Source: Candidatus Saccharimonadota bacterium (lineage in GTDB: Archaea > Nanohalarchaeota > Nanosalinia > Nanosalinales > Nanosalinaceae). Taken from it: a stretch of DNA of 32,000 bases. A program made the position numbers and the translations under genes. The notes under the pieces are model-generated. The model ran no database searches. It was not told where the DNA came from and was given only the letters and a program-made list of their open reading frames with translations. Location of the stretch: positions 840,001-872,000 of the forward strand of contig CP012986.1 in the NCBI GenBank assembly GCA_001761425.1, read 5' to 3'. Shown here one piece after another: positions 1 through 32,000 of the stretch. The number at the start of each line of letters is the position of its first letter. Positions within the stretch are counted from its first letter, which is position 1.

Positions 1-29
1 TAAAGAACAGCCTGAAAAAAGTATAGAGT

Positions 30-596
30 TTAGAAGTCAGTGAACTTTTTCTGACCTGACTCTTCTTTCCCGAAGGCCTTTCTCAAATCTTTTTCCAGTT
101 CAGGGCCTTTAGACCTGTCATAAAGTGCCGCTGCCGGATGGTACACGGGCATGATTTTCTGGCCTTCACGGGTAAAAATCCGGCCGTGAATCTTGCTGAT
201 ACCCTTACCAGTATCTAGAACGTGTTTAGAAGGGAAATTACCCAGTGTTACGATCATCTCCGGATCTACATCCTCAAGCTCCTGCTGAAGCAGAGGTGCC
301 CAGGCCTCTATCTCTTCTTTCTTCGGATCACGGTTGTCCGGAGGCCTTATCTTCACCAGGTTCGTGATATAGATATCACCTCTTTCTACATCAATATCTC
401 TCAGTATATCGTTCATACGTTCTCCTGCACGACCTACGAAAGGTTCTCCCTGTTCGACTTCGTTCGCTCCCGGTGCTTCGCCGATAAAGACTACATCCGC
501 GTCTTCAGGGCCTACGGAAGGCACGAAACGCTCTTCATCCATGTAGCTGGGATGCACAGTCTCGAAAAAATCCTCGTACTTTTTCCTGAAATCCAT
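30..596 (-). CDS. Uracil-DNA glycosylase, family 4
   Basis: 188-aa ORF with an ATG start. It carries the family-4 UDG motifs GEAPG (FIGEAPGANE) and a C-terminal HPAA (VYHPAAALY). Confidence 0.85.
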   Translation of the reverse strand: MDFRKKYEDFFETVHPSYMDEERFVPSVGPEDADVVFIGEAPGANEVEQGEPFVGRAGERMNDILRDIDVERGDIYITNLVKIRPPDNRDPKKEEIEAWAPLLQQELEDVDPEMIVTLGNFPSKHVLDTGKGISKIHGRIFTREGQKIMPVYHPAAALYDRSKGPELEKDLRKAFGKEESGQKKFTDF

Positions 597-626
597 AGAA
601 AAAAATATTTTTGAATTCTTTTTAAC

Positions 627-995
627 CTATCTAAAGGCCTCATCAAGGCCTTCAACAACATCATTGATGTAATCCTGTTCTACCTCTACATCGGACGAGC
701 GACTTTCCTCTCCGTACACCTTGACTCTGAAACCTCTTTCACTATTTCTCTCTGAGACGAAGAATTCTCCGGGTTCAAGGCCTGAGTCAAGTATCTGTCG
801 GTAAGCCTTTTCCGCTGTTTCAGTATCTATCATGCCTTCAAAGCTTCCTGGATACGATTCTTCGGATTCTGCCAGAGGACCTTCTCCAGAGATGAACACT
901 TCATTTCTGGTAATGAAGCCGTGTTCTGCATCGACCCTGTACCTTGGACCTGTTCCCAGGTCGCTGAAATACTCGATCTCGAATCCTCTACCCAT
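627..995 (-). CDS. Hypothetical acidic protein
   Basis: 122-aa ORF with acidic composition like its neighbours. No family recognised. The overlapping 830..1018 and 832..1098 ORFs look like shadow ORFs. Confidence 0.55.
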   Translation of the reverse strand: MGRGFEIEYFSDLGTGPRYRVDAEHGFITRNEVFISGEGPLAESEESYPGSFEGMIDTETAEKAYRQILDSGLEPGEFFVSERNSERGFRVKVYGEESRSSDVEVEQDYINDVVEGLDEAFR

Positions 996-1211
996 CGTAC
1001 CAAAACGTTGTTACCCAAAAATTATAAAAACAATCTCTCCAGTTTGCCGCCATTATCTAGCTAGCACCCGGAACTACCCGGACAAGGCCTCGAAATGAAA
1101 GAGGTTCAGAAAGACGTTATAGTTCGGCCTATCACTTCTCAGAAAAAGTGAGGAGCTTCTGAAGAAGGCCTCTGGGATCGTCTCCGGTGAACAATAGGCG
1201 AGTTTAAATTA

Positions 1212-2723
1212 TTGGCCAGTTCTATGGGGTTTATGGAGATGCCGGATTCTGTTGAGGGATACAGGCCTTCACGCCAGCAGCTTGCTGTTATCTGTTCAGG
1301 TATCGTGAGCATGGGACTGGAAATCTTGGCAGGTAGAGTGCTTGCACCGAATTTTGGTTCGACTATCTATACCTGGGGATCGATTATAGGTATCTCGATG
1401 CTGGCACTCAGCCTTGGATATCATAGAGGAGGCAAGAGCGCGAAGAAAGCAGATGAAGGCCATCTTGACAGCTTTCTTATCTATACAGCAGTCTATATCG
1501 TGTTCCTGACGGTTATAGGAGAACAGATACTAACTTTGACATCTGCACTGCCAATAGGAGCGAGGTACGCACCATTAATCCCGGTAACACTGCTTTTCGG
1601 GCCTCCGACCTATTTCCTCGGATTCATTAGCCCTTACGCAGTCCAGCTATCGAAAAAAGAGAACAAGGGAGAGGCCTCAGGTCATTTCTACGCAGTAGGG
1701 ACAGCAGGAAGCATCCTGGGAGCATTCGGAACCACCTACCTGTTAATACCGAACTTCGCTGTAAACACGATCTACGTATTGTTTACGGCCATAACTCTTC
1801 TCCCGGTACTGAGAGGCCTTGGAAATCCGAAGACATATCTTTTACCTATTTTTGTTATCTCAGGCCTTCTTCTAAGCGGTTCTGTCTCTGTTCCAGGAAA
1901 TACTGTTTACGAGGACAGTACTGCTTACCAGGAATTGCGTGTGGCGGATGAGGACGGTGTAAGGACTTTGTATCTGGATGGCCAGCCCCAGTCCTCCATG
2001 TATCTGGATAACAGAACCGGTTATCCCTGGGATTATCCCCGGTACTTTCACATCCCTTTCTTGATGCGTGAAGACATTGACAAAGTTCTTTTCATCGGCG
2101 GAGGAGGTTTTTCCGGCCCTAAAAAGTTCGCGGAGGACAATATCACAGTTCATGCTGTCGAAATTGATCCAGGAGTTATCAAAGCTGCAAAAAAGTATTT
2201 CAGCGTCTCAGAGTCACAGAACCTGAAGATCTACAACCAGGATGGACGTGAATTCCTGCAGAACTCCAACCACACATACGATGTGATCTACATGGACGCT
2301 TACAGGAAATCCAAAGTCCCGTTCCATTTAACGACAAAGGAATTCATGGAATTGACACACGAGAAAACCGATGAAAACGGCATAATATTTTCCAATACCA
2401 TCTCAACGTCTTCAGGCCCCGGCTCAGACTTCTCAAGATCACAGTACAAAACGGTAGGAGAAGTCTACCAGTCAACCTACTACTTCCCGACCTCCAACAC
2501 ACGCCTAGCCCAGAACATAGAGATAATCGGCTCCAAAAACGAAAAAATGACAGAAAAAAAACTGAAAGAAAACAACAAGGCCTACAGAAAGATGAATCTA
2601 TCCAGCGAAATAGAAAAACTGGAAAAACCGGAAACTGAAGGCCTTACAATCCTGAAAGATGACTATGCTCCCGTAGACAGTTTACTGGAACCATTAATAG
2701 GTAAAAAATACGTTGTAGAATAA
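1212..2723 (+). CDS. Membrane-fused spermidine synthase-like protein (polyamine aminopropyltransferase fold)
   Basis: 503 aa. The N-terminal half is polytopic membrane. The C-terminal half has the SAM/dcSAM-fold motifs FIGGGGF and DVIYMDAY typical of spermidine synthase-like proteins. The ORF-track start is TTG at 1212; the ATG at 1224 is an alternative. Confidence 0.75.
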   Translation: MASSMGFMEMPDSVEGYRPSRQQLAVICSGIVSMGLEILAGRVLAPNFGSTIYTWGSIIGISMLALSLGYHRGGKSAKKADEGHLDSFLIYTAVYIVFLTVIGEQILTLTSALPIGARYAPLIPVTLLFGPPTYFLGFISPYAVQLSKKENKGEASGHFYAVGTAGSILGAFGTTYLLIPNFAVNTIYVLFTAITLLPVLRGLGNPKTYLLPIFVISGLLLSGSVSVPGNTVYEDSTAYQELRVADEDGVRTLYLDGQPQSSMYLDNRTGYPWDYPRYFHIPFLMREDIDKVLFIGGGGFSGPKKFAEDNITVHAVEIDPGVIKAAKKYFSVSESQNLKIYNQDGREFLQNSNHTYDVIYMDAYRKSKVPFHLTTKEFMELTHEKTDENGIIFSNTISTSSGPGSDFSRSQYKTVGEVYQSTYYFPTSNTRLAQNIEIIGSKNEKMTEKKLKENNKAYRKMNLSSEIEKLEKPETEGLTILKDDYAPVDSLLEPLIGKKYVVE

Positions 2724-2736
2724 AGAAACTCTTTTT

Positions 2737-3073: not shown

Positions 3074-3082
3074 TATGTTGTA

Positions 3083-3159: not shown

Positions 3160-3233
3160 TCCCGACTCCAGGATTTGAACCTGGGACAATCCGCTCTACA
3201 GGCGGACGCTCTGCCAGCCTGAGCTAAGTCGGG
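3160..3233 (-). tRNA. tRNA-Tyr (anticodon GTA)
   Basis: Hand-folded 74-nt cloverleaf: CCCGACT TA GCTC AGGCTGGCA GAGC G TCCGC CTGTAGA GCGGA TTGTC CCAGG TTCAAAT CCTGG AGTCGGG A. All stems pair by Watson-Crick. The C1-G72 pair is the archaeal/eukaryal Tyr identity pair. No encoded CCA. Confidence 0.9.
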
Positions 3234-5649: not shown

Positions 5650-5821
5650 AGATTTTCCTCCCTACACAGGTTTCTAGGTTCTCCAGCTGTTTAAACAGTT
5701 ATGCTGTCAAAAAGGCCTTCAGCTTATTTATCTTAAACGTTTTTTGATAGCGATTGTCTGTATCTTTTTTCAGTAAAAAATTTTTCAACAGGCCTTTTTT
5801 ACGCTGTAAGTTTCAGAGTTT

Positions 5822-6833: not shown

Positions 6834-6845
6834 AGGCCTTTTTTA
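6834..6845. terminator. AGGCCT + T-run between convergent genes (candidate bidirectional terminator)
   Basis: AGGCCTTTTTT lies directly after the ldhA-like stop region. On the other strand, AGGCCT is followed by T-runs (TTTTTTcttcTTTTTTT) after the tfb stop. Confidence 0.35.
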
Positions 6846-7832
6846 GTCCATATCGATGTCGAGTTTGTCGGCGATGTCGCTGTAGTTCTTTCTGACTGTG
6901 ACTTCTGTGACTCCGACTTTCTCTGCGATCTCTTTCTGTGTCAGCTCCTTGTTTTCCACGCTGGATACGATGTAGAAAACTCCGGCGACGACAGATTTAG
7001 GACTTTTTCCGGCGAGAAGGCCTTCTCCTCTTGCCTCATCGATAATTCTTTTTGCGTGTGCCTGTTCCTGTCCGTTGAACCCTAGCTGTTCTCCGAATCT
7101 TGGTACGAAGTCTTCAGGTTTTGCCGGCTGGATAGGGATGTCCAGTTCTCTTGCTGCGTATCTGTAGGTTTTCCCAAGTTTTCTCTTTTTGGTTGAGATT
7201 GCTTCTGCGAATTCGTCCAGCGTCCTCGGTGTTCCCTGGTTTCTTGCTACGAGGAAGGTCAATGCTGCGACAAGGACTTCCAGGTTTCTTCCTTTTACGA
7301 TTCCCTCTTCTCTGGACTTTTCAAGCAGGCGTGCTGCTTCCTCTGAGACTGATTCCGGTAGGCCTAGCTGTGAGACCAGTTTTTTCATCTCTGAGAGGCC
7401 TCTCTGTAGTAGTCTTTCCTTCGAGTTGCTTGTTCTGTTGTCCCATTTCTTCATCCTGTAGTATTGCTGTCTTTTGGAACCCTTGACGTTGTTAAGTTCT
7501 CCACTGCTTCCGATCTTGGTTTTGAGGCCTTTATCGGATTTTGTGAAGGTTATTGAGCTTCCGGACCTGGATTTCTTGTCTTTTTCTGCTGCGTCAAATG
7601 CTCTCCATTCCTCGGAGAAGTCGATACGGTCTTCGTCGATGATTGATCCGCATTCTGTACAGTATAGCTCTCCTTTGGCGGAGTCCTCTGAGAAGGTTGA
7701 TGCTCCGCAGTTTGGACAGCGCGGCTTCTCGGACTGGGCCTGTTTTTGCTCTCTTTTCACCGGGATAGTTTCTTCCTTGGAGTTTGAAATACTAGTTTCT
7801 GAGTTCGAAGAATCCTCTTTTACGTCGGACAT
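6843..7832 (-). CDS. tfb: Transcription initiation factor IIB (TFB)
   Basis: Zn-ribbon CPNCG...CTECG followed by two cyclin-fold repeats and a C-terminal HTH (TQKEIAEKVGVTEVTVRKNY). The preferred start is the ATG at 7832 (MSDVKEDSS); the ORF track extends to the TTG at 7850. Confidence 0.9.
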   Translation of the reverse strand: MSDVKEDSSNSETSISNSKEETIPVKREQKQAQSEKPRCPNCGASTFSEDSAKGELYCTECGSIIDEDRIDFSEEWRAFDAAEKDKKSRSGSSITFTKSDKGLKTKIGSSGELNNVKGSKRQQYYRMKKWDNRTSNSKERLLQRGLSEMKKLVSQLGLPESVSEEAARLLEKSREEGIVKGRNLEVLVAALTFLVARNQGTPRTLDEFAEAISTKKRKLGKTYRYAARELDIPIQPAKPEDFVPRFGEQLGFNGQEQAHAKRIIDEARGEGLLAGKSPKSVVAGVFYIVSSVENKELTQKEIAEKVGVTEVTVRKNYSDIADKLDIDMD

Positions 7833-7854
7833 AGTAACACTAAAGACCAAAAAT

Positions 7855-9120: not shown

Positions 9121-9588
9121 ATGACGCACGATATTGATGATGTCGGGTTCAGTGCTCCAGCAGTTACAGAAAATGATATTTTCGAGTACGAGTTTGAGGG
9201 AGAAGGAACTACTGTACTCGCCTTTTTCCCGGGAGCTTTCACAAGCGTCTGTACGGAGGAGATGTGCGAGTTCAGAGATTCTCTATCAGAACTGAATGAC
9301 CTTGGCGCGGAAGTTTTAGGGGTCAGCGTTGATACACCTTTCTCACTTAACGAGTTCAGAGAACAGTACAACCTGAACTTCAAACTGGTCAGCGACAACA
9401 GGAAAGAGATAATCGACCAGTACAACGTCAGAACAGATTTCCTGGAGATGGGATTCACAGGCCTTGCACAGAGAGCAATCTTCATAGTGAATGACGGAGA
9501 AGTCGTCTACAGCCAGGTGATGGATGACCCAGAGAATCTTCCTGATCTAGACGATCTCAGAGAAGCCCTGAAAGAGTTCTCAGAGTAA
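9121..9588 (+). CDS. Peroxiredoxin (AhpC/TSA-redoxin family)
   Basis: Peroxidatic-Cys motif FFPGAFTSVCTEE (PxxxTxxC) and a thioredoxin-fold length of 155 aa. The antisense ORF 9027..9485 is rejected. Confidence 0.85.
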   Translation: MTHDIDDVGFSAPAVTENDIFEYEFEGEGTTVLAFFPGAFTSVCTEEMCEFRDSLSELNDLGAEVLGVSVDTPFSLNEFREQYNLNFKLVSDNRKEIIDQYNVRTDFLEMGFTGLAQRAIFIVNDGEVVYSQVMDDPENLPDLDDLREALKEFSE

Positions 9589-9661: not shown

Positions 9662-12358
9662 ATGGACTGGCACAGTAAATCCAGAGAAGAAATTTTCAGT
9701 CAGCTGGAAACAGATGAACAAGGCCTCAGCAGTGAAGAAGCAGAGAGAAGACTTGAAGAGTACGGCGAGAACCGTATAGAGGACGATGAATCGACTTCGA
9801 TGCTCAGCATCTTTATCAGCCAGTTCCAGGATAACCTGATCTATCTTCTGATGCTGGCAGGCCTTCTTTCTATCGCTGTCGGTTTTCTGCCAGGCCAGGA
9901 GCCTAAATATACTGAGACCGGTATTATTTTCCTGATACTTTTTGCGAACGGCGTTTTCGGTTTTATACAGGATTACAGGGCGGAAAAGTCGATCGAGGCC
10001 TTGAAGAAGATGTCTTCGCCTAATTCAACTGTCAGGAGGGACGGTGAGAAGAAAGAAGTTGATTCAACCAGGCTTGTTCCCGGCGATGTAATCTATCTTG
10101 AGCAGGGGGATGCAGTTCCTGCCGACGCATGGCTTCTGGAGGCAGAGTCACTGGATACCGATGAGTCAGCTCTTACCGGTGAAAGCATCAATGTCCAGAA
10201 AGATACAGATGTCAGGGAAGAGGATACACCGGTCGCTGAAAGAGGTAATATGGTCTTCATGGATACTCATGTTGTCAAGGGACGTGGAAAGGCAGTTATC
10301 ACAGACACAGGTATGGAGACCGAAGTAGGTGGTATAGCAGAAGAGATAGAGGAAGCAGATGAAAGCCAGACACCTTTCCAGGAGGAAGTAGATGTCATGG
10401 GCAAAAGAATAGGATACCTGGTTCTCGGAATCGTTTCCATCGTCGCAGTGATCCAGGTCGGACTGACAGGAGCAGGACCTATGACAATACTGCTCATGGC
10501 TATAGGCCTTTCAGTCGCAGCGATACCGGAATCCTTACCGGCTATCGTAACGCTTACACTCGCTCTAGGATCCAGAAAGTTACTGGCAAAAGACGCTCTG
10601 GTCAGAAGGCTTCCTGTGGTCGAAGCCCTGGGATCAGTTAACCATATCGTGACCGATAAAACCGGTACACTGACTGAAGGAATCATGACTGTGGAAAAAC
10701 TTTACTTCCAGGGAGAGGAGTTCGATGTCACAGGAAAAGGCACCAGTACAGAAGGAGAGTTCAAAAAGGACGGATACGAGACAGATGAAAACTATTTAAG
10801 GCCTTTACTTGAATGCGGACTTTACTGCAACAACTCTGAGAGAAGAAACGACGATTCAGAGGAAAAGTTCAGAGGAGAGCCTACAGAGATAGCGTTGCTC
10901 GCTGCTGCCAAAAAAGCAGGCCTTGAGGACGGAAAAGAAAGAAAGAGAAGTATTCCTTTCTCAGCGAACCGGAAAAGAATGACAGTTATCAAAGAAGATT
11001 CAAAGGCCTATATGAAAGGTGCTCCAGAGATAGTACTCGACAGATGTACACATATACTTGTCGACGGAGAGAAAAAAGAGCTTACAGAGGAGAGGAAAGA
11101 GGATATACTTGAACGAAACCACGAGTATGCGAAGAAGGCCTTGAGAGTTCTTGGCTTTGCCAGGAAAGATGTCGAAGATATTGAGGCGGACGATGATAAG
11201 ATCGAGAGCGGTATGACGTTTCTAGGCCTTCAATGCATGAAGGATCCGGCTCGTGAAGAGGTTAAAGGTGCTGTAGAGGAATGCAGGAATGCGGGGATCG
11301 GTGTGATCATGGCGACAGGAGATAACGTCGAGACTGCGAAGGCGATCGGCGAGGAGCTTGGCTTTGATCCTGAAGGTGCTGTGACTGGTAGAGAGATCGA
11401 GAAGATGAGCGACCAGGAACTGAGGGAGAAAGTGAAAGAACTCGAGATTTTCGCCCGTGTGACTCCGGAACACAAAGTGAGGATCTCTCAGGCCTTACAG
11501 GATCAGGGTTACAACGTTGCCATGACCGGTGACGGTGTAAACGATGCTCCAGCTCTGAAGAACTCGGACGTCGGCATTGCGATGGGTCAGAGGGGGACGG
11601 ATGTGGCGAAAAAGAGTTCTGACATGGTTCTTCAGGACGATAACTTTGTTACGATAAGAGATGCGATCTCGGAGGGAAGAGCGATCTTCGATAACATCAG
11701 GAAGGTTACGAACCAGCTTCTTTCCACGAACTCTGGAGAAGTCATGTTTGTCTTCCTGGGAACATTGATAGGAGGCCTTTTCTTCCCCGAATACTTCTCG
11801 ACCTCCGAATCAGTTGTACTGACTGCGGTGATGATCCTGTGGGTGAACTTTGCCAGTGACGGACCGCCGGCGATCGCCCTGGGCGAAGATCCGAAAGTAG
11901 AGGGTATAATGGATAGAGATCCGAGAGACCCCGACGAACCTATCCTGGACAAGAAGATCCTGGCCATGATCGCCTTCACAGGACCTCTGGCAGCTGCTAC
12001 AATGCTCCCACTGTTCTTCCTGAACATCGAGAACTTCCTCCAGGCACAGACCATGCTGTTCATGGCACTGGCATTCTTCGAGATAATCATGTTCCAGATA
12101 ATCAGAAGAGACTACGGCCTCAAACTAAGAGACAACAAATACCTCATAACCATGATAGGCCTCTCATCACTATCACACCTGGCATTACTCTACACACCGC
12201 TCTCAGGCCTCTTCGGAGTAACACCACTGGGCCTCGAAGCCTGGGCATACATCCTCACCGCACTCGGAGTATTCACCCTCGTAGAAGTAGGATACAGAAG
12301 AATCCTGTCAAGAAAATACGGCGACAGGAAAAAAGAATTCGACAAATTCTACGGATAA
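9662..12358 (+). CDS. Cation-transporting P-type ATPase (type II, Ca2+/SERCA-PMCA-like)
   Basis: 898 aa with DKTGTLT (phosphorylation site), TGES, MATGDN, GDGVNDAPAL and about 10 TM segments. Confidence 0.9.
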   Translation: MDWHSKSREEIFSQLETDEQGLSSEEAERRLEEYGENRIEDDESTSMLSIFISQFQDNLIYLLMLAGLLSIAVGFLPGQEPKYTETGIIFLILFANGVFGFIQDYRAEKSIEALKKMSSPNSTVRRDGEKKEVDSTRLVPGDVIYLEQGDAVPADAWLLEAESLDTDESALTGESINVQKDTDVREEDTPVAERGNMVFMDTHVVKGRGKAVITDTGMETEVGGIAEEIEEADESQTPFQEEVDVMGKRIGYLVLGIVSIVAVIQVGLTGAGPMTILLMAIGLSVAAIPESLPAIVTLTLALGSRKLLAKDALVRRLPVVEALGSVNHIVTDKTGTLTEGIMTVEKLYFQGEEFDVTGKGTSTEGEFKKDGYETDENYLRPLLECGLYCNNSERRNDDSEEKFRGEPTEIALLAAAKKAGLEDGKERKRSIPFSANRKRMTVIKEDSKAYMKGAPEIVLDRCTHILVDGEKKELTEERKEDILERNHEYAKKALRVLGFARKDVEDIEADDDKIESGMTFLGLQCMKDPAREEVKGAVEECRNAGIGVIMATGDNVETAKAIGEELGFDPEGAVTGREIEKMSDQELREKVKELEIFARVTPEHKVRISQALQDQGYNVAMTGDGVNDAPALKNSDVGIAMGQRGTDVAKKSSDMVLQDDNFVTIRDAISEGRAIFDNIRKVTNQLLSTNSGEVMFVFLGTLIGGLFFPEYFSTSESVVLTAVMILWVNFASDGPPAIALGEDPKVEGIMDRDPRDPDEPILDKKILAMIAFTGPLAAATMLPLFFLNIENFLQAQTMLFMALAFFEIIMFQIIRRDYGLKLRDNKYLITMIGLSSLSHLALLYTPLSGLFGVTPLGLEAWAYILTALGVFTLVEVGYRRILSRKYGDRKKEFDKFYG

Positions 12359-12412
12359 AAAAAGAAGGACCGGGATATAGAGAATCTGGGAACGATTACT
12401 ATCAGAAGCAGA

Positions 12413-13006
12413 TCAGTATAGGTGTGATTTTTCGTTCACTGAATTAATTGACCATCCTTTTTCTGCTGTCCAATTTAATTTGTTTACATTACAGTTTTCC
12501 TGATTTATTCTGTAACTGTTCTTGGCTGAGTGGTCCAGTATTCCCATTAAAGTGCTGCTTATTGTTCCTCCATGTGATATGATCACTACCTTTTCTCCTT
12601 CATTCTTCTCCTTGATACTGTTCAGGAACTCCGCTCCTCTTTCTTTTAATTCTTCCAGACTTTCTCCATCTTCTGGTTTCCACAGGTAATCTTCCGTTTC
12701 CGAATTGGATACCTCTTCTATCAACTCCTCAAATCTCTCTCCCTCAAATTTCGCTCTTGCGACCTCCTTCAGCTCCCCAGACTTTTCTACCTCTAAATCA
12801 TGCGGTTCTGCAACAATTTCAGCAGTCTCTACAGCTCTCGTCATCGAACTAGAATATATTTTGCTAATATCTTCTTCGGCAAGTCTATCTCTGAGTTTTC
12901 GGGCCTGTTCCCTCCCTTCCTCATTAATTCTGGATTCCATCTGACCCTGAACTACGCCGTTTTCGTTATGTTCAGTCTTTCCATGCCTACAGAGAAAAAG
13001 CTCCAT
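12413..13006 (-). CDS. Histidine phosphatase (phosphoglycerate mutase) family protein
   Basis: RHG catalytic motif (LFLCRHGKTEHN) and a downstream SHGG motif. The start is taken at MELFLCRHG (13006); the ORF track extends to 13048. Noticeably AT-richer than its surroundings and lacks AGGCCT. Confidence 0.8.
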   Translation of the reverse strand: MELFLCRHGKTEHNENGVVQGQMESRINEEGREQARKLRDRLAEEDISKIYSSSMTRAVETAEIVAEPHDLEVEKSGELKEVARAKFEGERFEELIEEVSNSETEDYLWKPEDGESLEELKERGAEFLNSIKEKNEGEKVVIISHGGTISSTLMGILDHSAKNSYRINQENCNVNKLNWTAEKGWSINSVNEKSHLY

Positions 13007-13144
13007 ACCAAGAGGTTGGACAGAAAAAATTAAATCAGTGAATGGCATGACCCGGGTTTACATCGGGATCAAAGCATGTACGATTGGAAGTCTCCCAATT
13101 TTCTGGAGCCTCGAATTTGTAAATCTTAAGTCGAAAGTTTTATC

Positions 13145-13609
13145 ATGGGATATAATGTAAGAACAGCTGAGCTCGATGATGTTGAGAGGATACAGGAGCT
13201 ATCCGTTAAGCTTTCTGAATGGGAGGAAGAAGAGTTCGACTCTACCATCAATCCGGACTGGAACACAACAGAGGAAGCAACGGAATGGTTTGAGCAACGT
13301 GTCTACGAAGGTTTTGCATATGTTGCAGTTGATGAAGAAATAGTCGGATATCTGATAGGAGCAGTCAACGGCTCAGAAGAATACCGTGATGATCTAACAG
13401 TCGCCGAACTTGAATCCATGTATCTTCACCCCGACTATCGAGGAAAAGGAATTGGGACAGAACTAGCGGAAAAGTTCCAGCAGGACGCAGAAGAAAAAAG
13501 CGCCGACCGCCTTAGAGTAGAGGTAACCGCTGACAACCAGAACGGACGAGAATTCTACAAAGCACTAGGCCTCACAGACTACGCAGTAACAATGGAAAAA
13601 GAACTGTAA
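13145..13609 (+). CDS. GNAT-family N-acetyltransferase
   Basis: 154 aa with the acetyl-CoA-binding motif A: LHPDYRGKGIGTEL (R/Q-x-x-G-x-G/A). Confidence 0.8.
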   Translation: MGYNVRTAELDDVERIQELSVKLSEWEEEEFDSTINPDWNTTEEATEWFEQRVYEGFAYVAVDEEIVGYLIGAVNGSEEYRDDLTVAELESMYLHPDYRGKGIGTELAEKFQQDAEEKSADRLRVEVTADNQNGREFYKALGLTDYAVTMEKEL

Positions 13610-13694
13610 CTCAGAAACTCTTCAACCCTGTTAATAGAGGCCGGAATACAGCAGTATTAAATCTGTAGTTTTTTCAATAATTACCTGTTTCCTT

Positions 13695-14315
13695 ATGACT
13701 GACAAAGATGCTATTGACAACTATCTTGTGTGGGAGCTTTGCAAGGAACAAGGTATCCAGAAGATGATTATTCAGGGTTCTGCTGATGGAGAGGACTTGA
13801 AAGAATTTGTTGAAAAAGTCAAGCAGAAATACAATAAGAAGAATTATGACCGTAGTGAAAAGATGGGCAAGTTGCAGGAGTTGGATAGCAATCCTGAATA
13901 TAGACGCAGAATTTTTGAAAGCTGCTCGTGGAGCAGGGAAAATGTAAAGCTAGAGGATTTGGGAACAACTTTGCCTCGTTTTGGAGGCTTACCTCCTGAA
14001 GTAATTTCAGGTTCACTTCCAGAAGTTGTACAGTTCGTTAGAAAAGCAGACCCAGAGGAATATCAGAGTGTAAAATACATAATGAGGTTAAAGGAAGTGC
14101 CTGAAGTCTTGAATGAATTTTTACCATGGGTAATTACTCCTGGCAAAAGGGAGAGCAAACGAGATAGGATGAATAGAGTACATGGTGAGAGGGATTGGGA
14201 TATAGAGGATACTTGGGGAATGATTAATGATGGGAACCACCGTACAGTTGCTAAAGTCTTGACTAATGATTCAGACCAGATAGAGTGCTATGTAGGTCAT
14301 CGACAAAGTCATTAG
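13695..14315 (+). CDS. ParB/Srx-superfamily (ParB-like nuclease domain) protein
   Basis: 206 aa. The C-terminal MINDGNHRTVAKVL matches the DGxHR core of ParB N-terminal-type domains. No Cys in the motif, so it is not a sulfiredoxin. No AGGCCT in the gene. Confidence 0.45.
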   Translation: MTDKDAIDNYLVWELCKEQGIQKMIIQGSADGEDLKEFVEKVKQKYNKKNYDRSEKMGKLQELDSNPEYRRRIFESCSWSRENVKLEDLGTTLPRFGGLPPEVISGSLPEVVQFVRKADPEEYQSVKYIMRLKEVPEVLNEFLPWVITPGKRESKRDRMNRVHGERDWDIEDTWGMINDGNHRTVAKVLTNDSDQIECYVGHRQSH

Positions 14316-14483
14316 GAGCTAATTTAGCCTTGGCAGTTCCGAGATTCCTTAGAACTGTGGATATGCAACTGGCAGTTTTTGGAAGCCATGCAGAGCATGG
14401 CTTATGATTATAAAAACACTGAATTCCATTCGAATTCAGTTCGAACCAACTTTCTAAAGAAAATTGGTGACTTTCAGAAGTTT

Positions 14484-14505
14484 TGGCAGGACCCGGATTC
14501 GAAAC
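14484..14505 (-). repeat. Partial direct copy of the tRNA-Pro 3' end (positions about 52-73)
   Basis: The minus strand reads GTTTCGAATCCGGGTCCTGCCA. It is 20/22 identical to positions 52-73 of the tRNA-Pro at 14617..14689 and lies 111 nt downstream of it. No partner 5' acceptor strand lies in between. Confidence 0.75.
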
Positions 14506-14616
14506 TCGATAGAGTTTCTGCATCCCCAGAAAATCCTTCGGATTTTCGATGGATTTGAACTTGAAAACAAGTTTTCTGCTGCTTCAAATCACGGGTTGAA
14601 GCAGCGCTGAAAGCGA

Positions 14617-14689
14617 TGGCAGGACCCGGATTTGAACCGGGGTCTGGCCGTCCCAAACGGCCAATGATAGTCCACTACACCATCCCGCC
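14617..14689 (-). tRNA. tRNA-Pro (anticodon TGG)
   Basis: Hand-folded 73-nt cloverleaf: GGCGGGA TG GTGT AGTGGACTA TCAT T GGCCG TTTGGGA CGGCC AGAC CCCGG TTCAAAT CCGGG TCCTGCC A. It has one G4-U69 wobble and a weak D-stem. Confidence 0.85.
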
Positions 14690-14764
14690 GTTACACTTTA
14701 ATCTGGTTCGAAAACCTTTAATCAGGTTTTCTACGATGATCGAACTCTCACGAGTTCGGTTCAT

Positions 14765-14779
14765 CTACACCATCCCGCC
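14765..14779 (-). repeat. Partial direct copy of the tRNA-Pro 5' end (positions 1-15)
   Basis: The minus strand reads GGCGGGATGGTGTAG, 15/15 identical to the start of the tRNA-Pro. It lies 75 nt upstream of it. Identity again stops after position 15. Confidence 0.8.
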
Positions 14780-14807
14780 CTGCGTATTATGTTGGTCTTA
14801 GTTAAGT

Positions 14808-14817
14808 CTTTTAAACC
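14808..14817 (-). promoter_or_regulatory. TATA box upstream of the outer tRNA-Pro 5' copy
   Basis: The minus strand reads GGTTTAAAAG. The TTTAAAA element ends about 30 nt upstream of position 14779, which is the normal spacing for an archaeal tRNA promoter. Confidence 0.4.
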
Positions 14818-14913
14818 AATATGTTAGGGCTGGAGGCCTTTACTGGTTTTTTCTATCTCCGGTTTTTGAATAGGTGAAGTGTTTTTTTATTCTGTGATAC
14901 GTGTTTTTTTGCT

Positions 14914-15666: not shown

Positions 15667-15676
15667 AGGCCTTTTT
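15667..15676. terminator. AGGCCT + T5 between convergent genes
   Basis: AGGCCTTTTT lies directly after the TGA stop of 14914..15666 and abuts the stop of 15676..16200. Confidence 0.3.
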
Positions 15677-18989: not shown

Positions 18990-19511
18990 ATGGAAAAGGA
19001 TAAACTTCTGAAGGCCTTGAGCGTTCTTGTTATAGGCCTTGCTGCGGGTTTTTTACTGAATTTTTCCCAGTCCGGTACTGTGGAAGATGGTACTGACTGG
19101 AGGAATGAGACTCTTCAGGATGTGAGTACGGGAGAAAAGTTCACTGTTTCAGGCCTTGAGAAGCCTGTTCTGGTGGAGACTTTTGCGGTCTGGTGTCCGA
19201 CCTGTACCCGTCAGCAGGAGGAGATCAAAAAGCTTCACGAGAAGGAAGGTATCAGCTCTGTCTCTCTGGACGTGGATCCGAATGAGGAGGCCTCAAAGGT
19301 TCAGAACCATGTTCAGAAGAATAATTTCACGTGGCGGTATTCTATAGCTTCTTCAGGCCTTACAAGGAAACTTGTACAGCAGTACGGTTCTTCCATGGCT
19401 AATCCTCCTTCCACTCCTGTCGTATTGGTCTGTGAAAACGGCTCGAGAAAGCTTTCCGACGGCGTTAAAACTGCTGAAAAACTGGAGCAGGAGGTAGAGA
19501 AAGGCTGTTAG
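18990..19511 (+). CDS. Membrane-anchored TlpA/ResA-like thiol-disulfide oxidoreductase
   Basis: N-terminal TM anchor (LLKALSVLVIGLAAGFLLNF) followed by a thioredoxin fold with FAVWCPTCTRQ. Confidence 0.8.
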   Translation: MEKDKLLKALSVLVIGLAAGFLLNFSQSGTVEDGTDWRNETLQDVSTGEKFTVSGLEKPVLVETFAVWCPTCTRQQEEIKKLHEKEGISSVSLDVDPNEEASKVQNHVQKNNFTWRYSIASSGLTRKLVQQYGSSMANPPSTPVVLVCENGSRKLSDGVKTAEKLEQEVEKGC

Positions 19512-19512
19512 C

Positions 19513-20184
19513 ATGATCTCGGATTTTTTAAGTTCATTCCTTCTAGGCCTTGCGACCCCTCTCACCGCAGCATGTGTGTTACCGCTTTACCCGGGCTTCA
19601 TCTCGTACCTGACAAAGCAGTTAGACGGCTCGGAATCAAGAAAAACCTACGTATTTTTCGGAGGCCTGACCACGGCAGGAGTGATCAGTTTTATGCTCGT
19701 CCTGGGCCTCGTATTCACGACCTTGATACAGGCCTCGCTGACAGCAGTAACCCAGGTAGTATCGCCGATCGCGTTTGCAGTTCTAGGCCTTCTGAGCCTT
19801 CCGATGATCGCGGGAAAAAGCTTTGACAGCTTTCTACCTTCTCTGGATGCTCCAGGATTTGAAAACCCTCTGAAAAACGCTTTTGGTTTCGGTTTTTTCT
19901 TCGGAGCGATAGTGCTGCCCTGTAATCCGGGCTACATAGCTGTCTTCCTGGCAAGAGCGACATTGTTCAGTTCGCCGATCTCAGGCCTTCTGAACTTCCT
20001 TCTTTTCGGAGTAGGTATCGGATCTCCTCTGCTCGCGTTCTCACTGATCTCTTCCAGAAAAAGCAGTGAAGTGACAGGAATCCTGAAAAAGCACGAGAAA
20101 AGGATCAACCAGGCCTCAGGCCTTTTCATGCTGTCGATAAGTCTTTATTACCTTTTCTTTGTTTTCAACCTGTTTTCTCTCTAG
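19513..20184 (+). CDS. ccdA: CcdA/DsbD-family transmembrane thiol-disulfide electron transporter
   Basis: 223 aa with about 6 TM segments. It has the two conserved Cys-Pro motifs of CcdA: ACVLPLYPGF and LPCNPGY. Confidence 0.85.
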   Translation: MISDFLSSFLLGLATPLTAACVLPLYPGFISYLTKQLDGSESRKTYVFFGGLTTAGVISFMLVLGLVFTTLIQASLTAVTQVVSPIAFAVLGLLSLPMIAGKSFDSFLPSLDAPGFENPLKNAFGFGFFFGAIVLPCNPGYIAVFLARATLFSSPISGLLNFLLFGVGIGSPLLAFSLISSRKSSEVTGILKKHEKRINQASGLFMLSISLYYLFFVFNLFSL

Positions 20185-20185
20185 T

Positions 20186-20842
20186 TTATTTCCAGACACG
20201 CTCGATGTATCCGGTTCTCCCGCTTCCACGTTTGTAGGCCCTGTACTGGTAAGTATTTTTCACTGAGTAGTTTTGTTGGGAGTCCTTCGCCCTGTAAAAG
20301 TCTGTGAAGTTTTTTACTTCGGTGACTATTTCTTCGTCGAATTTTCCGCTGTTGCTGAGGTTCTCCTTTGACTGTTTCGCCAGTCTGTACTGTCTTTCAT
20401 CGTGTGCGTAGATAGCTGTAGTGTACTGGAAGCCCCTGTCCGCGAACTGGCCTCCAGGATCCGTGGGATCGATGCTACGCCAGTAGATATCAAGTAACTC
20501 TCTGTAATCGATCAGGCTGGGGTAGTACTCGACCATAACCGCTTCCCTGTGTTCTGTTTCACCGGAGGCTACAAGCCTGTACTCCGCTGTAGAGGCCTTA
20601 CCATCGGTGAAACCGCTTACTGCTGATTCGATACCTTTTTCACCCTGGTAGACTTCCTCTATACACCAGAAACAACCTCCTGCGAACGTTGCTTTTTCCG
20701 GGGTCCTGTTCTCGACCTGTGAGCGCCATTCCTGGCTAGAACCGTTTTTATCCCCGTTTATGAACTCGGAGGCCTCCGGGGCGATAAAACCTGCGGTGAC
20801 GCCTACTAGCAGTATGAGTAGAAGAGATCTGTTGAACTCCAT
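20186..20842 (-). CDS. msrA: Peptide-methionine (S)-S-oxide reductase MsrA with N-terminal signal anchor
   Basis: GGCFWCIEEVY catalytic motif. It is preceded by a hydrophobic N-terminus (LLLILLVGVTAGFIA), which suggests an extracytoplasmic location. Confidence 0.9.
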   Translation of the reverse strand: MEFNRSLLLILLVGVTAGFIAPEASEFINGDKNGSSQEWRSQVENRTPEKATFAGGCFWCIEEVYQGEKGIESAVSGFTDGKASTAEYRLVASGETEHREAVMVEYYPSLIDYRELLDIYWRSIDPTDPGGQFADRGFQYTTAIYAHDERQYRLAKQSKENLSNSGKFDEEIVTEVKNFTDFYRAKDSQQNYSVKNTYQYRAYKRGSGRTGYIERVWK

Positions 20843-20916
20843 TTTACAGAGTTAATTTCTCACGGCATGGATTTTAAGGTGATGCTTACGGAAAAGTTAG
20901 CCGGATCTTCAGGAGC

Positions 20917-21462
20917 CTAGAGGAATCTTGGGACCTTCCTCCAGTATTCTCTGTACTCATCACCGTATTCCTGGTCCAGCCATAGCTCCTCCGAAAAAAC
21001 CATCATTATCAGCCAGAGGCCTGTGATAGAAGAAACCAGAACCGGTCGAAGGCTTCTGAGAAGTGCTACGATGCCTAAAAGTGTTATCAGGTTGCCTAGT
21101 ACCTGTGGGTTTCTGCTGTACTGGTAGAGGCCTTCATCCACGAAACTTTTGTCGAGGCCTGATGTCTGTTTGAGGCTTAGCTGTTTGATTGCCTTCAAAG
21201 TAACTAATATGCCTCCGATGATGGCTGTAATAGATATGACGGAGTTTATTGTTATTGAGAAGTTTTGAAGGCCTTTGACTGTCATGTAGGTCAGCGATAT
21301 CATGTTTGCTGTGGATAGTATCCAGTAAGTTATCCGTTTCCTGTTATTTTTTCCTGGAGGCCAGAACCTGAACTTTCTGCTGTAAACAGTTGCTGTCATC
21401 AGGCCCAGTAATAATGTTGAGCTGGTGAGGCCTGTATAAAATATGATCTGGTTTATTTCCAC
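20917..21462 (-). CDS. Membrane methyltransferase-like protein (ICMT/PEMT family)
   Basis: 181 aa and polytopic. GLYQYSRNPQVLGNL matches the G-x-Y-x-x-x-R-[HN]-P motif of isoprenylcysteine carboxyl / phospholipid methyltransferase-type proteins. GTG start. Confidence 0.65.
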   Translation of the reverse strand: MEINQIIFYTGLTSSTLLLGLMTATVYSRKFRFWPPGKNNRKRITYWILSTANMISLTYMTVKGLQNFSITINSVISITAIIGGILVTLKAIKQLSLKQTSGLDKSFVDEGLYQYSRNPQVLGNLITLLGIVALLRSLRPVLVSSITGLWLIMMVFSEELWLDQEYGDEYREYWRKVPRFL

Positions 21463-21518
21463 GTAAACATTTAGCTGTAGGGGATTTTATTTGTGGGAGG
21501 CCTTTTCTGCGAGTCTAG

Positions 21519-22157
21519 TTATGAACCGGTGTTGTTGAATAGACCGGTGTATTCTCCGTATCCCTGTTCCTCCAGCTTGTCAGCAGGTATGAACTCGAGT
21601 GCTGCACTGTTGAGGCAGTATCTGAGGCCTGTGGGCGTGTTTGGGTTTTCGAAGATGTGTCCCAGGTGGCTGTCTGCGTGTTTGCTTCTGACCTCTACTC
21701 TGTCTCCTACAGGCCCTGGATCTTTTTTCTCCACAACGTTTGAAGGTTCGAGCGGTCTGTAGAAGCTTGGCCATCCTGTCCCTGACTTGAATTTGGTCCT
21801 GCTGGAGAAAAGCGGTTCCCCGCTCACCACATCTACGTAGATGCCGGGTCTGTAGTTGTCGTAGAGTTCGTTTACGAACGGTTTTTCCGTACCCAGTTGC
21901 TGTGTCACGTAGTACTCTGTCTCTGAGAGATTTTCTATCTCTTCCTGGTAGCTTTCCTGTATCCATCTTTCATCACTCGGAGGATCTGAACTGAACCTCT
22001 CCTCCTGTACATTCAAGTCCTGAGTCCCTGTCATCCAGGCCAGACCGCTCGTAATATATCCTGAGAAAAACAGGCCTAGAAGGAGAAATGCAAGGCCTCC
22101 AAGCAAAAATCTGTTTCTCCTTTTCTTATCCATCTTGCTCACCTTCGAACTTTTCAA
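21519..22157 (-). CDS. msrB: Peptide-methionine (R)-S-oxide reductase MsrB with N-terminal membrane anchor
   Basis: GTGWPSFYRP, HLGHIF and RYCLNSAAL motifs. A KKRRNRF + TM helix at the N-terminus follows the positive-inside rule, placing the catalytic domain outside. It lacks the Zn-binding CxxC pairs. Confidence 0.9.
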   Translation of the reverse strand: MKSSKVSKMDKKRRNRFLLGGLAFLLLGLFFSGYITSGLAWMTGTQDLNVQEERFSSDPPSDERWIQESYQEEIENLSETEYYVTQQLGTEKPFVNELYDNYRPGIYVDVVSGEPLFSSRTKFKSGTGWPSFYRPLEPSNVVEKKDPGPVGDRVEVRSKHADSHLGHIFENPNTPTGLRYCLNSAALEFIPADKLEEQGYGEYTGLFNNTGS

Positions 22158-27979: not shown

Positions 27980-27983
27980 AAGA

Positions 27984-29014: not shown

Positions 29015-29527
29015 ATGACGGAGGAAGTTGTGCTGGGCGGAGGCTGCTTCTGGTGTACGGAGGCCTCTTTCAAAGAGGTCTCGGGAGTGCTGGAAGTTAC
29101 TTCAGGGTATGCCGGAGGACACGCAGAGAACCCGAGTTACAGGGAGGTATGTTCCGGTGACACAGGACATGCCGAAGTAGTAAGGATAGAGTACAGAGAG
29201 GAAAAAGTTTCTCTTGAAAAATTACTGGAACTTTTCTTCAGGATACACGACCCGACGACAGAAGATCGACAAGGCCCTGATGTGGGGAACCAGTACCGCT
29301 CGATAATCCTTTATCAGAATGAGGAGCAGAGGGAAAAAGTTGAGGCCTTCATCGAGGAGAAAGAAGACGAGTACGAAGATGAGATCGTGACTGAGGTCAA
29401 GAGTCTTGATAATTTTTACAGAGCTGAAGAGAGGCATCAGGATTACTTTGAGAAGAATCCTGAGAACGCTTACTGTACGATGCATGCAGAGCCGAAGGTG
29501 GAGAAGGCCCGTGAGATGAACTTGTAG
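29015..29527 (+). CDS. msrA: Peptide-methionine (S)-S-oxide reductase MsrA (cytoplasmic form)
   Basis: GGGCFWCTEASF lies at the extreme N-terminus with no signal or anchor. 170 aa. Confidence 0.9.
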   Translation: MTEEVVLGGGCFWCTEASFKEVSGVLEVTSGYAGGHAENPSYREVCSGDTGHAEVVRIEYREEKVSLEKLLELFFRIHDPTTEDRQGPDVGNQYRSIILYQNEEQREKVEAFIEEKEDEYEDEIVTEVKSLDNFYRAEERHQDYFEKNPENAYCTMHAEPKVEKAREMNL

Positions 29528-29614
29528 AGGACAGAGAATTTTTTCCTGTGGTTCTTGATCGCCAGGGAAGATCTGAGAAAAGGTTAAAAGCAGGGATCGC
29601 TGAAAGTATTTACC

Positions 29615-30433: not shown

Positions 30434-30589
30434 AAAAACCCACAAAAAAGAATCTGTGACCGCATTTGAGATCTGTGTTTTCCGGAGTGGAAGAGTGCTT
30501 AAATTAAACTCTGCCAAATATTTTCGTGATTGACAATGTAGAGTTCGAGACCCGCATATCTATAAGATATGCTTCGACTAAATTTTACC

Positions 30590-30862
30590 ATGGTAGAATT
30601 CGAGACTATCGAGAAAGAAAGACGTGATTATGGAAACTTTCCGGGAGAAAAATTCATCGAGGTAAGCCGGAACAAGGCCATCCAGGACGACGGATCGGAG
30701 AACAGCTTTATCCAGATCGCCACCGGTTACTACAACGATGAAGAACCTCAGTACAAGAAAAGGTTCACAGTCCCGACTGACGATAAAGCAGTGGATCAGA
30801 TCGTTGAAAAACTTCCCGAAATGTTCGAGAAAGAGAAAGAAAATCGCGAATCAGAGGAGTAA
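30590..30862 (+). CDS. Hypothetical acidic protein
   Basis: The ORF 30569..30862 probably starts at MVEFETIEK (ATG 30590). No family recognised. Confidence 0.45.
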   Translation: MVEFETIEKERRDYGNFPGEKFIEVSRNKAIQDDGSENSFIQIATGYYNDEEPQYKKRFTVPTDDKAVDQIVEKLPEMFEKEKENRESEE

Positions 30863-30995
30863 AAAATTACAGGCCTTACTGGAGGCCTCAACTTTTTTCC
30901 AGTGTTTTTTCACTGCATCATCTACTTCTTGAAACAGTCCAGTAGTCGGGTCCTGAAGGCCAGTTTTTTTATCCAGGGTTTCGAAAATTTTCTGT

Positions 30996-31202
30996 ATGCA
31001 CTGGATTCAGAAGAAAATGATGGATTATCATCACGGTTATTTCATGGGTGTAGGCCTTGGACTTTTCCTGTTCGGCTTTGCAGTACAGGTCTTTTTGCTT
31101 CCTGAAGGCCTGAGACCGGAGAGTTTCCAGCTACTGACTGTTATTGGAGCATTGTTACTGGGTTATGGGACAGGAAGATGTGACCAGAAGGCCTGTAACT
31201 AA
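30996..31202 (+). CDS. Hypothetical small membrane protein
   Basis: 68 aa with two hydrophobic helices. Weak support. Confidence 0.3.
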   Translation: MHWIQKKMMDYHHGYFMGVGLGLFLFGFAVQVFLLPEGLRPESFQLLTVIGALLLGYGTGRCDQKACN

Positions 31203-31232
31203 AAAAGCGTGTGGTGCTGGATTCGAGTTTTT

Positions 31233-31760
31233 TTATTGGTTTCTGTGATGCCAGTAAAACAGTAGTCTGGAGAATATTTCGTCCAGGGCTATGGTGAGTG
31301 TTATTATGAGGCCTGAAAAGCTTCCTAGGACTGCTGAGGCCTTTTGTTCTAGTGTGTTGAAGGCTGGGCCTTCTGATAGAGCGGTTTCCAGGAGCAGGTC
31401 GGTCGAGGACATGAATCCTCGGCAGTAAGGTTGTTCTGTGAAGATGCATGGTCGGTAGAGCAGTCCGAGTGCCAGTGTTGAGATCATTGCCGATGTTGCG
31501 ACCATGAGTTCTCCTTTCTCCCATTTTCCCTGGTATTTTTGCTCGAGGCTGTGTCTAAGCCGTGGGTAGAGGATCCTTGACCATATTGTCGCCAGTGAAA
31601 CTGAGATTACAGTAGCTGCTGTGAGCAGTATCCAGGCTGAGATAGGGACGAGCTGTCTGACCGGGCCAGCGGTAGATAGAAGGCCGAAAAAGATAGGGGG
31701 AACGATAAAGCCTAGAACAGGTGCAGAAACGAAAATTAAGGCCTTTCTGAAGTGATTCAT
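31233..31760 (-). CDS. Polytopic membrane protein, unknown function
   Basis: 175 aa with about 5 TM helices and an ATG start. Confidence 0.55.
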   Translation of the reverse strand: MNHFRKALIFVSAPVLGFIVPPIFFGLLSTAGPVRQLVPISAWILLTAATVISVSLATIWSRILYPRLRHSLEQKYQGKWEKGELMVATSAMISTLALGLLYRPCIFTEQPYCRGFMSSTDLLLETALSEGPAFNTLEQKASAVLGSFSGLIITLTIALDEIFSRLLFYWHHRNQ

Positions 31761-31865
31761 ATCTAATTAGTTAAAGACGGAACTTGATAAGATTTTCCTG
31801 CGGAAGATTCTAGCTCACGGGAAAATAATCTTTTTGAACATCTAAATCCAGTTCTGTATTACAGG

Positions 31866-32000
31866 ATGGCCCTAGTTTACCCTGAGATAACTTTCGCATA
31901 TGTAATCAGTTTAATCGCTGGTATCTACGGCTTAGCTCTTTTAATATTTCTGAGGGAACTTAGGAAAAGGCCTGAAACAGTTATGGCACGTTTTAAACTT
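31866..32000 (+). CDS. Small membrane protein (paralog family A), truncated by the window end
   Basis: ATG at 31866. Translation: MALVYPEITFAYVISLIAGIYGLALLIFLRELRKRPETVMARFKL. The segment FLRELRKRPETVMARFKL aligns with FLKAVRDNSDKAMASFQL of 25629..25952. Confidence 0.4.
   Translation, partial: MALVYPEITFAYVISLIAGIYGLALLIFLRELRKRPETVMARFKL

Follow-up and report, generated by a model that had tools for sequence, protein, structure and literature searches.

AGGCCT in nanohaloarchaeal DNA is best read as a HIP1-like highly iterated palindrome

A dispersed hexamer in the genome of a Nanohalobium relative

The stretch analysed here, 32,000 bp of contig CP012986.1 (positions 840,001 to 872,000; hereafter the window, numbered from its first base), carries archaeal genes, among them a TFB gene, a P-type ATPase gene and a set of redox-repair genes, and is dotted from end to end (1..32000, neither strand) with the palindrome AGGCCT, a hexamer present in 149 scattered copies, as established by exact counts, a flank table and codon-aware nulls. 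TFB, which served as the phylogenetic marker (6843..7850, minus strand), has relatives with 94% and 89% identity in two Nanohalobium metagenome-assembled genomes (Nanohaloarchaeota, DPANN), identifying the organism as a relative of Candidatus (Ca.) Nanohalobium and bearing out the guess of an initial annotation, made from the letters alone, that it was a host-attached DPANN cell. Exact protein matches place the window on a contig of 1,125,078 bp in JGI metagenome 3300010222 (Ga0136257_100001).

Copies of the word lie both within genes and between them. The TFB gene holds four, all in the frame that reads x-Gly-Leu, whilst a CcdA/DsbD-like membrane protein gene (19513..20184, plus strand) holds seven (10.4/kb) and uses seven of its eight synonymous opportunities. 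Two convergent genes are separated by AGGCCTTTTT at 6834..6843, and the same word recurs at 15667-15676 and 5790-5799; the initial annotation had located the first two correctly and had placed the third at 5792. Two further copies (1085..1171) lie in the spacer (996-1211) of divergently transcribed genes; this spacer is probably not transcribed, and a DNA-level signal is therefore favoured over an RNA-level one. Right after a stop codon, at 30871..30888, two copies 12 bp apart (AGGCCT-TACTGG-AGGCCT) are followed by a T-run, one of few close pairs and shaped like a terminator hairpin.

Abundance and placement

AGGCCT is by a wide margin the commonest hexamer of the window (GC 46.0%), with a mean spacing of 215 bp. 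Base composition predicts 6.4 copies (observed/expected, obs/exp, 23), and 100 dinucleotide-preserving shuffles gave 8.24±3.07 with a maximum of 14 (obs/exp 18). For a coding null, 41 non-overlapping open reading frames (ORFs) covering 86% of the window were used: these contain 124 copies, against 14.2±3.5 (maximum 25) when synonymous codons were shuffled with all proteins and codon usage kept and 8.9±3.1 when codon order was shuffled, so that the codon-aware null leaves an excess of about nine-fold. A maximal-order Markov model does expect 141 copies, which is no refutation, because the 5-mers AGGCC (179) and GGCCT (180) already hold the signal. AGGCCT accounts for 149 of the 228 GGCC tetramers; pooled, the remaining 15 words of the form NGGCCN stand at expectation, and the one-mismatch neighbours number 3-21 copies each (GGGCCT 21, AGGCTT 16, AGGCCC 14, AGGCCA 13). 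The enriched unit is thus the full six-mer, as the initial annotation had proposed, and its manual estimate of about 150 copies was right; the dinucleotide- and codon-aware nulls that it called for leave the excess standing. Its estimate of about ten or fewer copies for each one-base neighbour was too low.

Within genes, all three frames are used (69 copies as xxA-GGC-CTx, encoding x-Gly-Leu; 41 as xAG-GCC-Txx, encoding [K/E/Q]-Ala-x; and 14 as AGG-CCT, encoding Arg-Pro), and the two gene orientations share the copies almost equally (61 in plus-strand and 63 in minus-strand genes). Fully intergenic copies number 15, at a density of 5.4/kb compared with 4.3/kb within genes (window 1-22358, gene calls of the Joint Genome Institute). 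The excess is therefore a property of the DNA, independent of frame, gene orientation and coding status; the initial annotation had reached the same view of a signal imposed on the DNA and not arising from one peptide motif, and its observations of copies in every frame, in both orientations, in intergenic DNA and about seven times in ccdA all stand.

Preferences in the flanks are weak and confined to positions -1 and +1 (A or G before the word, T or C after it), with composition near background farther out; a T in front of the word and an A behind it are disfavoured, in part through the stop codon TAG. Since the flanks are unconserved past one base, AGGCCT is not part of a longer repeat, and the flank table of the window gave no sign of the conservation beyond the core that would mark repetitive extragenic palindromes (REP), miniature inverted-repeat transposable elements (MITE) or other small mobile repeats. 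Nor is it a polar signal of the Chi or KOPS (FtsK orienting polar sequence) type, which would show strand skew: the word is its own reverse complement and cannot carry polarity.

A patchy trait among related lineages

The comparison sample comprised 5-21 kb around TFB from 18 nanohaloarchaeal or other DPANN genomes, one locus each, with genes outside the window taken from simple long-ORF sets. Nine independent loci are enriched. The five of the Nanohalobium clade carry 2.9-4.7 copies per kb (obs/exp 15-28), loci L140/141 carry 2.0-2.3 (10-12), CP046106.1 carries 2.2 (10.4), Ca. Nanohalovita haloferacivicina BNXNv 1.7 (10.5) and Ca. Nanosalina VS9-1 3.3 (17). Values of 0.2-1.7 were found in the non-enriched loci L154, L155, L157, L153, L003/4 and L156, in a Lake Tyrrell J07AB scaffold and in a GC-poor DPANN locus. 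Of these, L154 and L155 are the closest outgroups of Nanohalobium, and in a neighbour-joining tree of TFB enriched and non-enriched lineages interleave, the number of gains and losses being uncertain from a single gene. The excess is a discrete, bimodal and patchy trait among related lineages: the comparison of related genomes that the initial annotation had recommended separates an obs/exp of 10-28 in enriched lineages from about 1 in relatives interleaved with them. GC content is not the cause of this pattern, because L157, at 47% GC, has one site in 12.6 kb; no substitute palindrome above about 4-fold was found in the non-enriched relatives.

Haloarchaeal loci of host type (L006-L015) hold 19 copies in 184 kb where about 62 are expected (obs/exp ~0.3, 0.10/kb), so that the 4.7/kb of the window amounts to a ~45-fold contrast in density.

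Candidate viral carriers of the word were also considered. Contigs of IMG/VR with clustered AGGCCT (three within 70 bp) were rejected as nanohaloarchaeal viruses, being, among the matches listed, mostly tandem repeats or chance. Dispersed excesses were seen in L017 (IMGVR_UViG_3300029432_000018; obs/exp 33), L098 (8) and L123 (5), but these are not nanohaloarchaeal: L017 is a low-GC phage-like fragment, and L098 is a bacterial-type mobile element (ParA, integrase, primase) with no match in the phage collection. AGGCCT-rich DNA may exist in other lineages too.

Maintenance of sites between species

Individual sites were followed in L138, whose TFB is 98% identical to that of the window and whose nucleotide identity to it is 80%. 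Of 45 aligned copies, 34 are kept there, compared with 29.5% of hexamers generally (binomial p 2e-10). At four-fold degenerate third positions where the amino acid is conserved, the two genomes share the same base in 83% of cases inside sites and in 46% elsewhere (Fisher p 7e-7), and GGC glycine codons are kept in 18/21 cases inside sites against 12/38 outside. Three more distant genomes point in the same direction. TFB itself illustrates the pattern: three of its four window copies are kept in L138, and one site (…R/K-G-L-S…) stands at the same codon in Nanohalobium and in Ca. Nanosalina (L005), the other TFB sites being lineage-specific. Sites are thus maintained between species and not merely created. 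Where they have been lost or gained, the inner variant AGACCT is the commonest difference, at about 10 of 22 single-step changes, although these counts are small and partly non-independent, and the larger comparison of near-cognate words within genomes, described below, lends no support to a process specific to C-to-T changes.

Saturation and proteome imprint

Wherever the protein sequence permits the word, it is usually present: in the window, 64% of Arg-Pro, 71% of [KEQ]-Ala-[FLSYCW] and 77% of x-Gly-Leu opportunities encode AGGCCT. The permissive peptides are themselves in excess, with 103 Gly-Leu in window proteins against 65.5±7.1 in amino-acid shuffles, and 56 [KEQ]A[FLSYCW] against 28.3±4.8. 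When 42,070 codons from enriched loci were pooled and compared with 29,434 codons from non-enriched relatives, 53-62% of opportunities were used in the former and 5-7% in the latter. The obs/exp ratio of Gly-Leu was 1.46 in enriched and 1.22 in non-enriched loci, that of Arg-Pro 1.30 and 0.81, and that of [KEQ]-Ala-[FLSYCW] 1.55 and 0.93; the reversed controls gave 1.01 and 0.94 (Leu-Gly) and 0.92 and 0.98 (Pro-Arg). AGGCCT has shifted the peptide composition of the proteome.

Short-range avoidance

Close pairs of sites are rarer than chance would have them. When the nine enriched loci are pooled, 20 pairs lie 1-30 bp apart where chance predicts 52.6, and 37 lie 31-60 bp apart where it predicts 52.5; all pairs at 120 bp or less number 148 against 210 (Poisson P 4e-6), and past about 120 bp counts are as expected. 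The test is conservative, because pooling loci of unequal usage would bias it toward clustering. Conditioned on the positions at which peptides offer an opportunity, 17 pairs lie within 30 nt (29.7±4.3 expected) and 46 within 60 nt (70.3±6.4 expected); since the avoidance survives this conditioning, it acts on codon choice. Within single genomes, the coefficient of variation of the gaps is 0.74 in L138 (P 0.001), 0.78 in the window once the probable island described below is removed, and about 1 in L005 and L141, so that even spacing is clear in the window and L138, and not in L005 or L141.

A segment with hardly any AGGCCT

The two largest inter-copy gaps of the window together form an AGGCCT-poor segment (12211..14833), with one copy over 2.6 kb in place of the ~12 expected; the nominal probability makes this shortage look more striking than it is, because the region was picked after the gaps had been seen. 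Within it, the block 12413-14689 comprises a His-phosphatase gene, a GNAT acetyltransferase gene, an unknown 206-aa ORF and tRNA-Pro (14617-14689). The segment has a GC content of 42.6-43% and a GC content at third codon positions (GC3) of 0.38-0.42, its genes offer merely 3 peptide opportunities in 571 codons, and no counterpart was found after the syntenic ATPase gene in L138. It is probably an island, recently acquired beside a tRNA gene, whose DNA does not yet bear the signature of the resident chromosome. The tRNA-Pro(TGG) is an ARAGORN call for which the Rfam tRNA model gave no report at its gathering threshold; only tRNA-Tyr, at 3160-3233, is reported by both ARAGORN and Rfam.

Near-cognate words

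With non-enriched nanohaloarchaeal loci as the baseline, variants of AGGCCT at the outer bases are raised (AGGCCC/GGGCCT 4.6 fold, CGGCCT 2.0 fold, TGGCCT 1.6 fold), those at the middle bases stand at 0.6-1.4 fold (AGGCTT/AAGCCT 1.44 fold), and those at the inner bases are mildly depleted, the transition AGGTCT/AGACCT to 0.77 fold and the transversions to 0.68 and 0.74 fold. NGGCCN words with both flanks altered are not raised. A classical Dcm/Vsr-type drive from T:G to C:G is therefore not visible, as the products of deamination are not specifically depleted, and the initial annotation's suggestion of methylation-linked very-short-patch (VSP) repair, at least in its simple form, is not supported by these words. 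An outer bias among one-off variants was used by Elhai to tie HIP1 to a methyltransferase reading the inner site (PMC4390886); the halo around AGGCCT would fit equally well a protein of any kind whose recognition is strictest at the GGCC core.

Relation to known word systems

The closest known system, absent from the initial annotation, is that of cyanobacterial HIP1 (GCGATCGC) and the alternate highly iterated palindromes (PMC4390886, PMC5861425). HIP1 and AGGCCT have in common that a short GC-rich palindrome is over-represented at least 15-fold (10-28 for AGGCCT in the nine loci sampled), that copies fall in all frames and between genes at sites conserved across species beyond background, that the trait is present in most lineages of a clade and lost in some, that one-off variants are biased to the first or last base, and that the function is unexplained. 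The differences are as clear: AGGCCT is another word, of 6 bp and not 8 bp, at about 2-5 sites/kb where HIP1 has about 1/kb; it occurs in a nanohaloarchaeon, a DPANN episymbiont, and not in a cyanobacterium; no cognate methyltransferase is tied to it; and short-range avoidance is seen here. The periodicity of HIP1 has been reported at 10-90 kb, and the AGGCCT window spans 32 kb. AGGCCT is an analogue of HIP1 proper and not a member of it; it shows each of the features tested for the wider class of highly iterated palindromes (excess, independence of frame, conservation and outer-biased variants), and the best reading is that it is a HIP1-like highly iterated palindrome, actively maintained at the DNA level. 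In 8 million open-access full texts (subscription literature lay outside the scope), neither an enrichment of AGGCCT in nanohaloarchaea nor a HIP-like word in any archaeon was found to have been reported, and no archaeal precedent is known. AGGCCT differs from HIP1 in its sequence and in the domain of life that carries it, and its density is several-fold higher.

Two other systems are informative by partial likeness. Restriction-site avoidance concerns the same class of type-II-like palindromic hexamers, and in the pooled enriched loci ACGCGT (obs/exp 0.16) and AGCGCT (0.29) are depleted in the very DNA that is rich in AGGCCT; the sign is opposite, AGGCCT being raised 16-23 fold, and these depleted palindromes look like ordinary restriction-site avoidance. 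The Dcm/Vsr system of Escherichia coli, in which a methyltransferase target is favoured by context-specific T:G correction, raises CCWGG and lowers CTWGG, a small effect; Vsr-like and cytosine-methyltransferase genes are annotated in the cultivated nanohaloarchaeon SVXNc, but the depletion of T-containing near-cognates is not seen for AGGCCT.

Candidate explanations

Under the reading of AGGCCT as a maintained palindrome, the word would be recognised by a sequence-specific activity, peculiar to certain lineages, that binds or modifies DNA. The favoured activity would be a type-II-like cytosine methyltransferase that reads the GGCC core and is coupled to a methyl-dependent reader or repair step, with sites then kept by purifying selection, biased correction or both. 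One site per ~200 bp would suffice, and a close second site would be useless or harmful, for instance if the two copies paired as a hairpin. A link to a methyltransferase is favoured because the word is a typical type II target, because the trait appears and disappears among lineages much as a gene that is gained and lost would, and because the literature lends circumstantial support; interference between sites, synonymous conservation and the cost to proteins together argue for selection with diminishing returns, or for hairpin avoidance, over pure mutational drive. It is tentatively suggested, with somewhat less than even confidence, that AGGCCT may serve a dispensable, lineage-specific and methyltransferase-linked recognition system.

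The circumstantial support comes from the few nanohaloarchaea for which restriction and methylation have been described. A REBASE survey includes a single Nanohalobia genome, with one type II methyltransferase and one m5C-class (5-methylcytosine) gene (PMC10609329). SVXNc expresses an orphan 'DNA cytosine methyltransferase' (SVXNc_0487), for which single-molecule real-time (SMRT) sequencing found no motif, and also has a 'Vsr-like endonuclease' (SVXNc_0274) (PMC10266531, PMC11001535). The SVXNc sequence examined, about 1 kb of non-coding RNA only, contains one AGGCCT. CP107255 is named as the SVXNc reference in PMC10266531, although its public record and its gene order (a type III Mod gene near index ~800) fit BNXNv, and this is probably a slip.

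Several observations weigh against a methyltransferase-linked system. Known repair-driven word biases, such as that of CCWGG in E. coli, are far weaker than 20-fold, and the specific loss of T-containing near-cognates (AGGTCT/AGACCT, AGGCTT/AAGCCT) that is the signature of VSP repair was not seen. The gene tables for ~270 kb of nanohaloarchaeal DNA, and a motif scan of part of it, revealed neither a methyltransferase nor a Vsr-like gene nor a candidate binding protein that could be tied to the trait, and the part scanned contained no m5C or N6/N4 catalytic motifs. The only nanohaloarchaeal methylome, that of SVXNc, reports just N4-methylcytosine (m4C) at GDGCHC, a site that SVXNc strongly avoids, and BNXNv is enriched in AGGCCT (obs/exp 10.5), yet the only restriction-modification system described there is of type III. 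The phylogeny, finally, is a one-gene neighbour-joining tree, and the comparison samples one short locus per genome.

Of the alternatives, the one that fares best, though unlikely, is a signal for self-DNA recognition or uptake, analogous to the uptake signal sequence (USS) of Haemophilus and the DNA uptake sequence (DUS) of Neisseria, in which a receptor, at the surface or in the cytoplasm, would prefer AGGCCT-bearing DNA and biased uptake, recombination or protection would enrich the word and mark symbiont against host DNA. The resemblance is extensive: USS and DUS are genome-wide, lineage-specific words that lie mostly in genes, are fairly evenly spaced, form occasional terminator pairs and are scarce in foreign DNA, and Findlay and Redfield, in 2009, reportedly described for USS a bias to frames encoding common peptides and an imprint on the proteome. 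AGGCCT has its counterpart to each of these in its frame bias and peptide shift, its more even than random spacing, the T-run that here and there follows a pair of copies where a gene ends, the probable island nearly devoid of the word and the ~45-fold contrast with haloarchaeal loci, and its patchiness is what a dispensable system would be expected to show. Set against this, USS and DUS are non-palindromic words of 9-12 nt at ~1/kb with known competence machinery and receptors, whereas AGGCCT is a 6-bp palindrome with weak flank preferences that carries far less information; no competence or uptake machinery is known for Nanohaloarchaeota, neither such machinery nor a receptor candidate was seen in the analysed loci, and a literature search linking nanohaloarchaea to ComEC returned nothing relevant.

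A more specific and rather improbable proposal is that AGGCCT may tag as 'self' the chromosome of an episymbiont connected to its host by cytoplasmic bridges, a lineage-specific reader, methyl-dependent or not, directing uptake, recombination, protection or degradation. One hexamer could tell symbiont from host DNA at kilobase scale, because the two differ at ~4.7 and ~0.1 sites per kb.

It is also improbable that the word does nothing and is the product of a function-free molecular drive, whether VSP-like or of the kind of Elhai's methyl-dependent ratchet, in which context-specific mismatch correction or gene conversion makes and restores AGGCCT. Such a drive would act in all frames and in intergenic DNA, would keep sites conserved, would leave recently acquired DNA word-poor and would come and go with the responsible gene; AGGCCT is of the kind that type II methyltransferases typically recognise, and the annotation of SVXNc includes both an orphan cytosine methyltransferase and a nuclease resembling Vsr. 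Yet inner transitions, at 0.77 fold, behave like inner transversions (0.68-0.74) and AGGCTT/AAGCCT is raised (1.44), the strength required to reshape peptides far exceeds known VSP effects, and the short-range interference, which persists even when conditioned on opportunities, is not predicted by independent conversions at each site.

Comparably doubtful is a binding site for an architectural, segregation or replication factor of unmethylated DNA, such as a nucleoid protein, a dyad that positions histones or a signal for priming or loading that has to work on either strand, needed every ~200 bp. A palindrome would suit a symmetric dimer acting independently of the direction of replication or transcription, the depletion of pairs under ~60 bp would fit either a footprint or diminishing returns, sites are conserved, and the inner bases are more constrained than the outer. 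However, a core chromosome function is unlikely to be present in some genera and absent from relatives interleaved with them, and no candidate protein was found in the analysed loci.

An artefact of coding, RNA or repeats (through codon-pair bias, a preferred peptide, a motif in RNA or the spread of a small mobile repeat) could appeal to the uneven use of frames (69/41/14) and to Gly-Leu being a common dipeptide, but it is effectively refuted and excluded for practical purposes by protein- and codon-preserving shuffles that yield 14 copies against 124 observed, by the use of all three frames, an intergenic density at least that of genes, copies in probably untranscribed divergent spacers and flanks unconserved past one base, and by non-enriched relatives that have the same peptides and use the word in merely 5-7% of them.

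Implications

Hyper-abundant palindromes have been an unsolved puzzle since HIP1 was described, and an all-or-nothing trait among related genomes of ~1 Mb offers a way in, since a comparison of presence and absence should point to the gene or genes responsible. Enriched strains, Ca. Nanohalovita BNXNv and Ca. Nanohalobium constans among them, are in laboratory co-culture, and AGGCCT is a commercial restriction site (StuI, with the HaeIII core), so that its methylation state can be tested at the bench. The ~45-fold contrast in density between symbiont and host bears on the exchange of DNA between DPANN archaea and their hosts; were the self-tag reading true, it would represent a new kind of discrimination between self and non-self DNA in DPANN archaea. 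AGGCCT density also provides a sharp marker for genome binning and for spotting foreign islands.

Other observations in the window and the comparison loci

Two base-excision repair genes lie on the minus strand of the window, at 30-596 and 15676-16200, one belonging to the uracil-DNA glycosylase superfamily (E 3e-34) and the other a weak OGG/HhH-like match. A cluster for the repair of oxidative damage (18990-22157 and 29015-29527, also 9121-9588) encodes a thioredoxin-like protein, CcdA/DsbD, two MsrA, MsrB and a peroxiredoxin. Among other palindromes, CGCGCG, CAATTG and ACATGT are missing from the window and CTAG is scarce there, which again looks like ordinary restriction-site avoidance. The 8-mer CAGGCCTG is also missing from it (~5 expected from independent flank frequencies) and occurs 23 times in the pooled enriched loci, its absence probably being chance; CAGGCCTT and GAGGCCTG are common in the window. 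Loci of haloarchaeal type have abundant palindromes of their own, perhaps only through codon and amino-acid bias: CTCGAG reaches an obs/exp of 9-12 in Natrialba and Natronorubrum loci (among the Natrialbaceae loci L006, L008-L011 and L013), and the commonest hexamer of the metagenome contigs L145, L146 and L149 (GC content 60%), at about 5/kb, is CGATCG, which forms the core of cyanobacterial HIP1.

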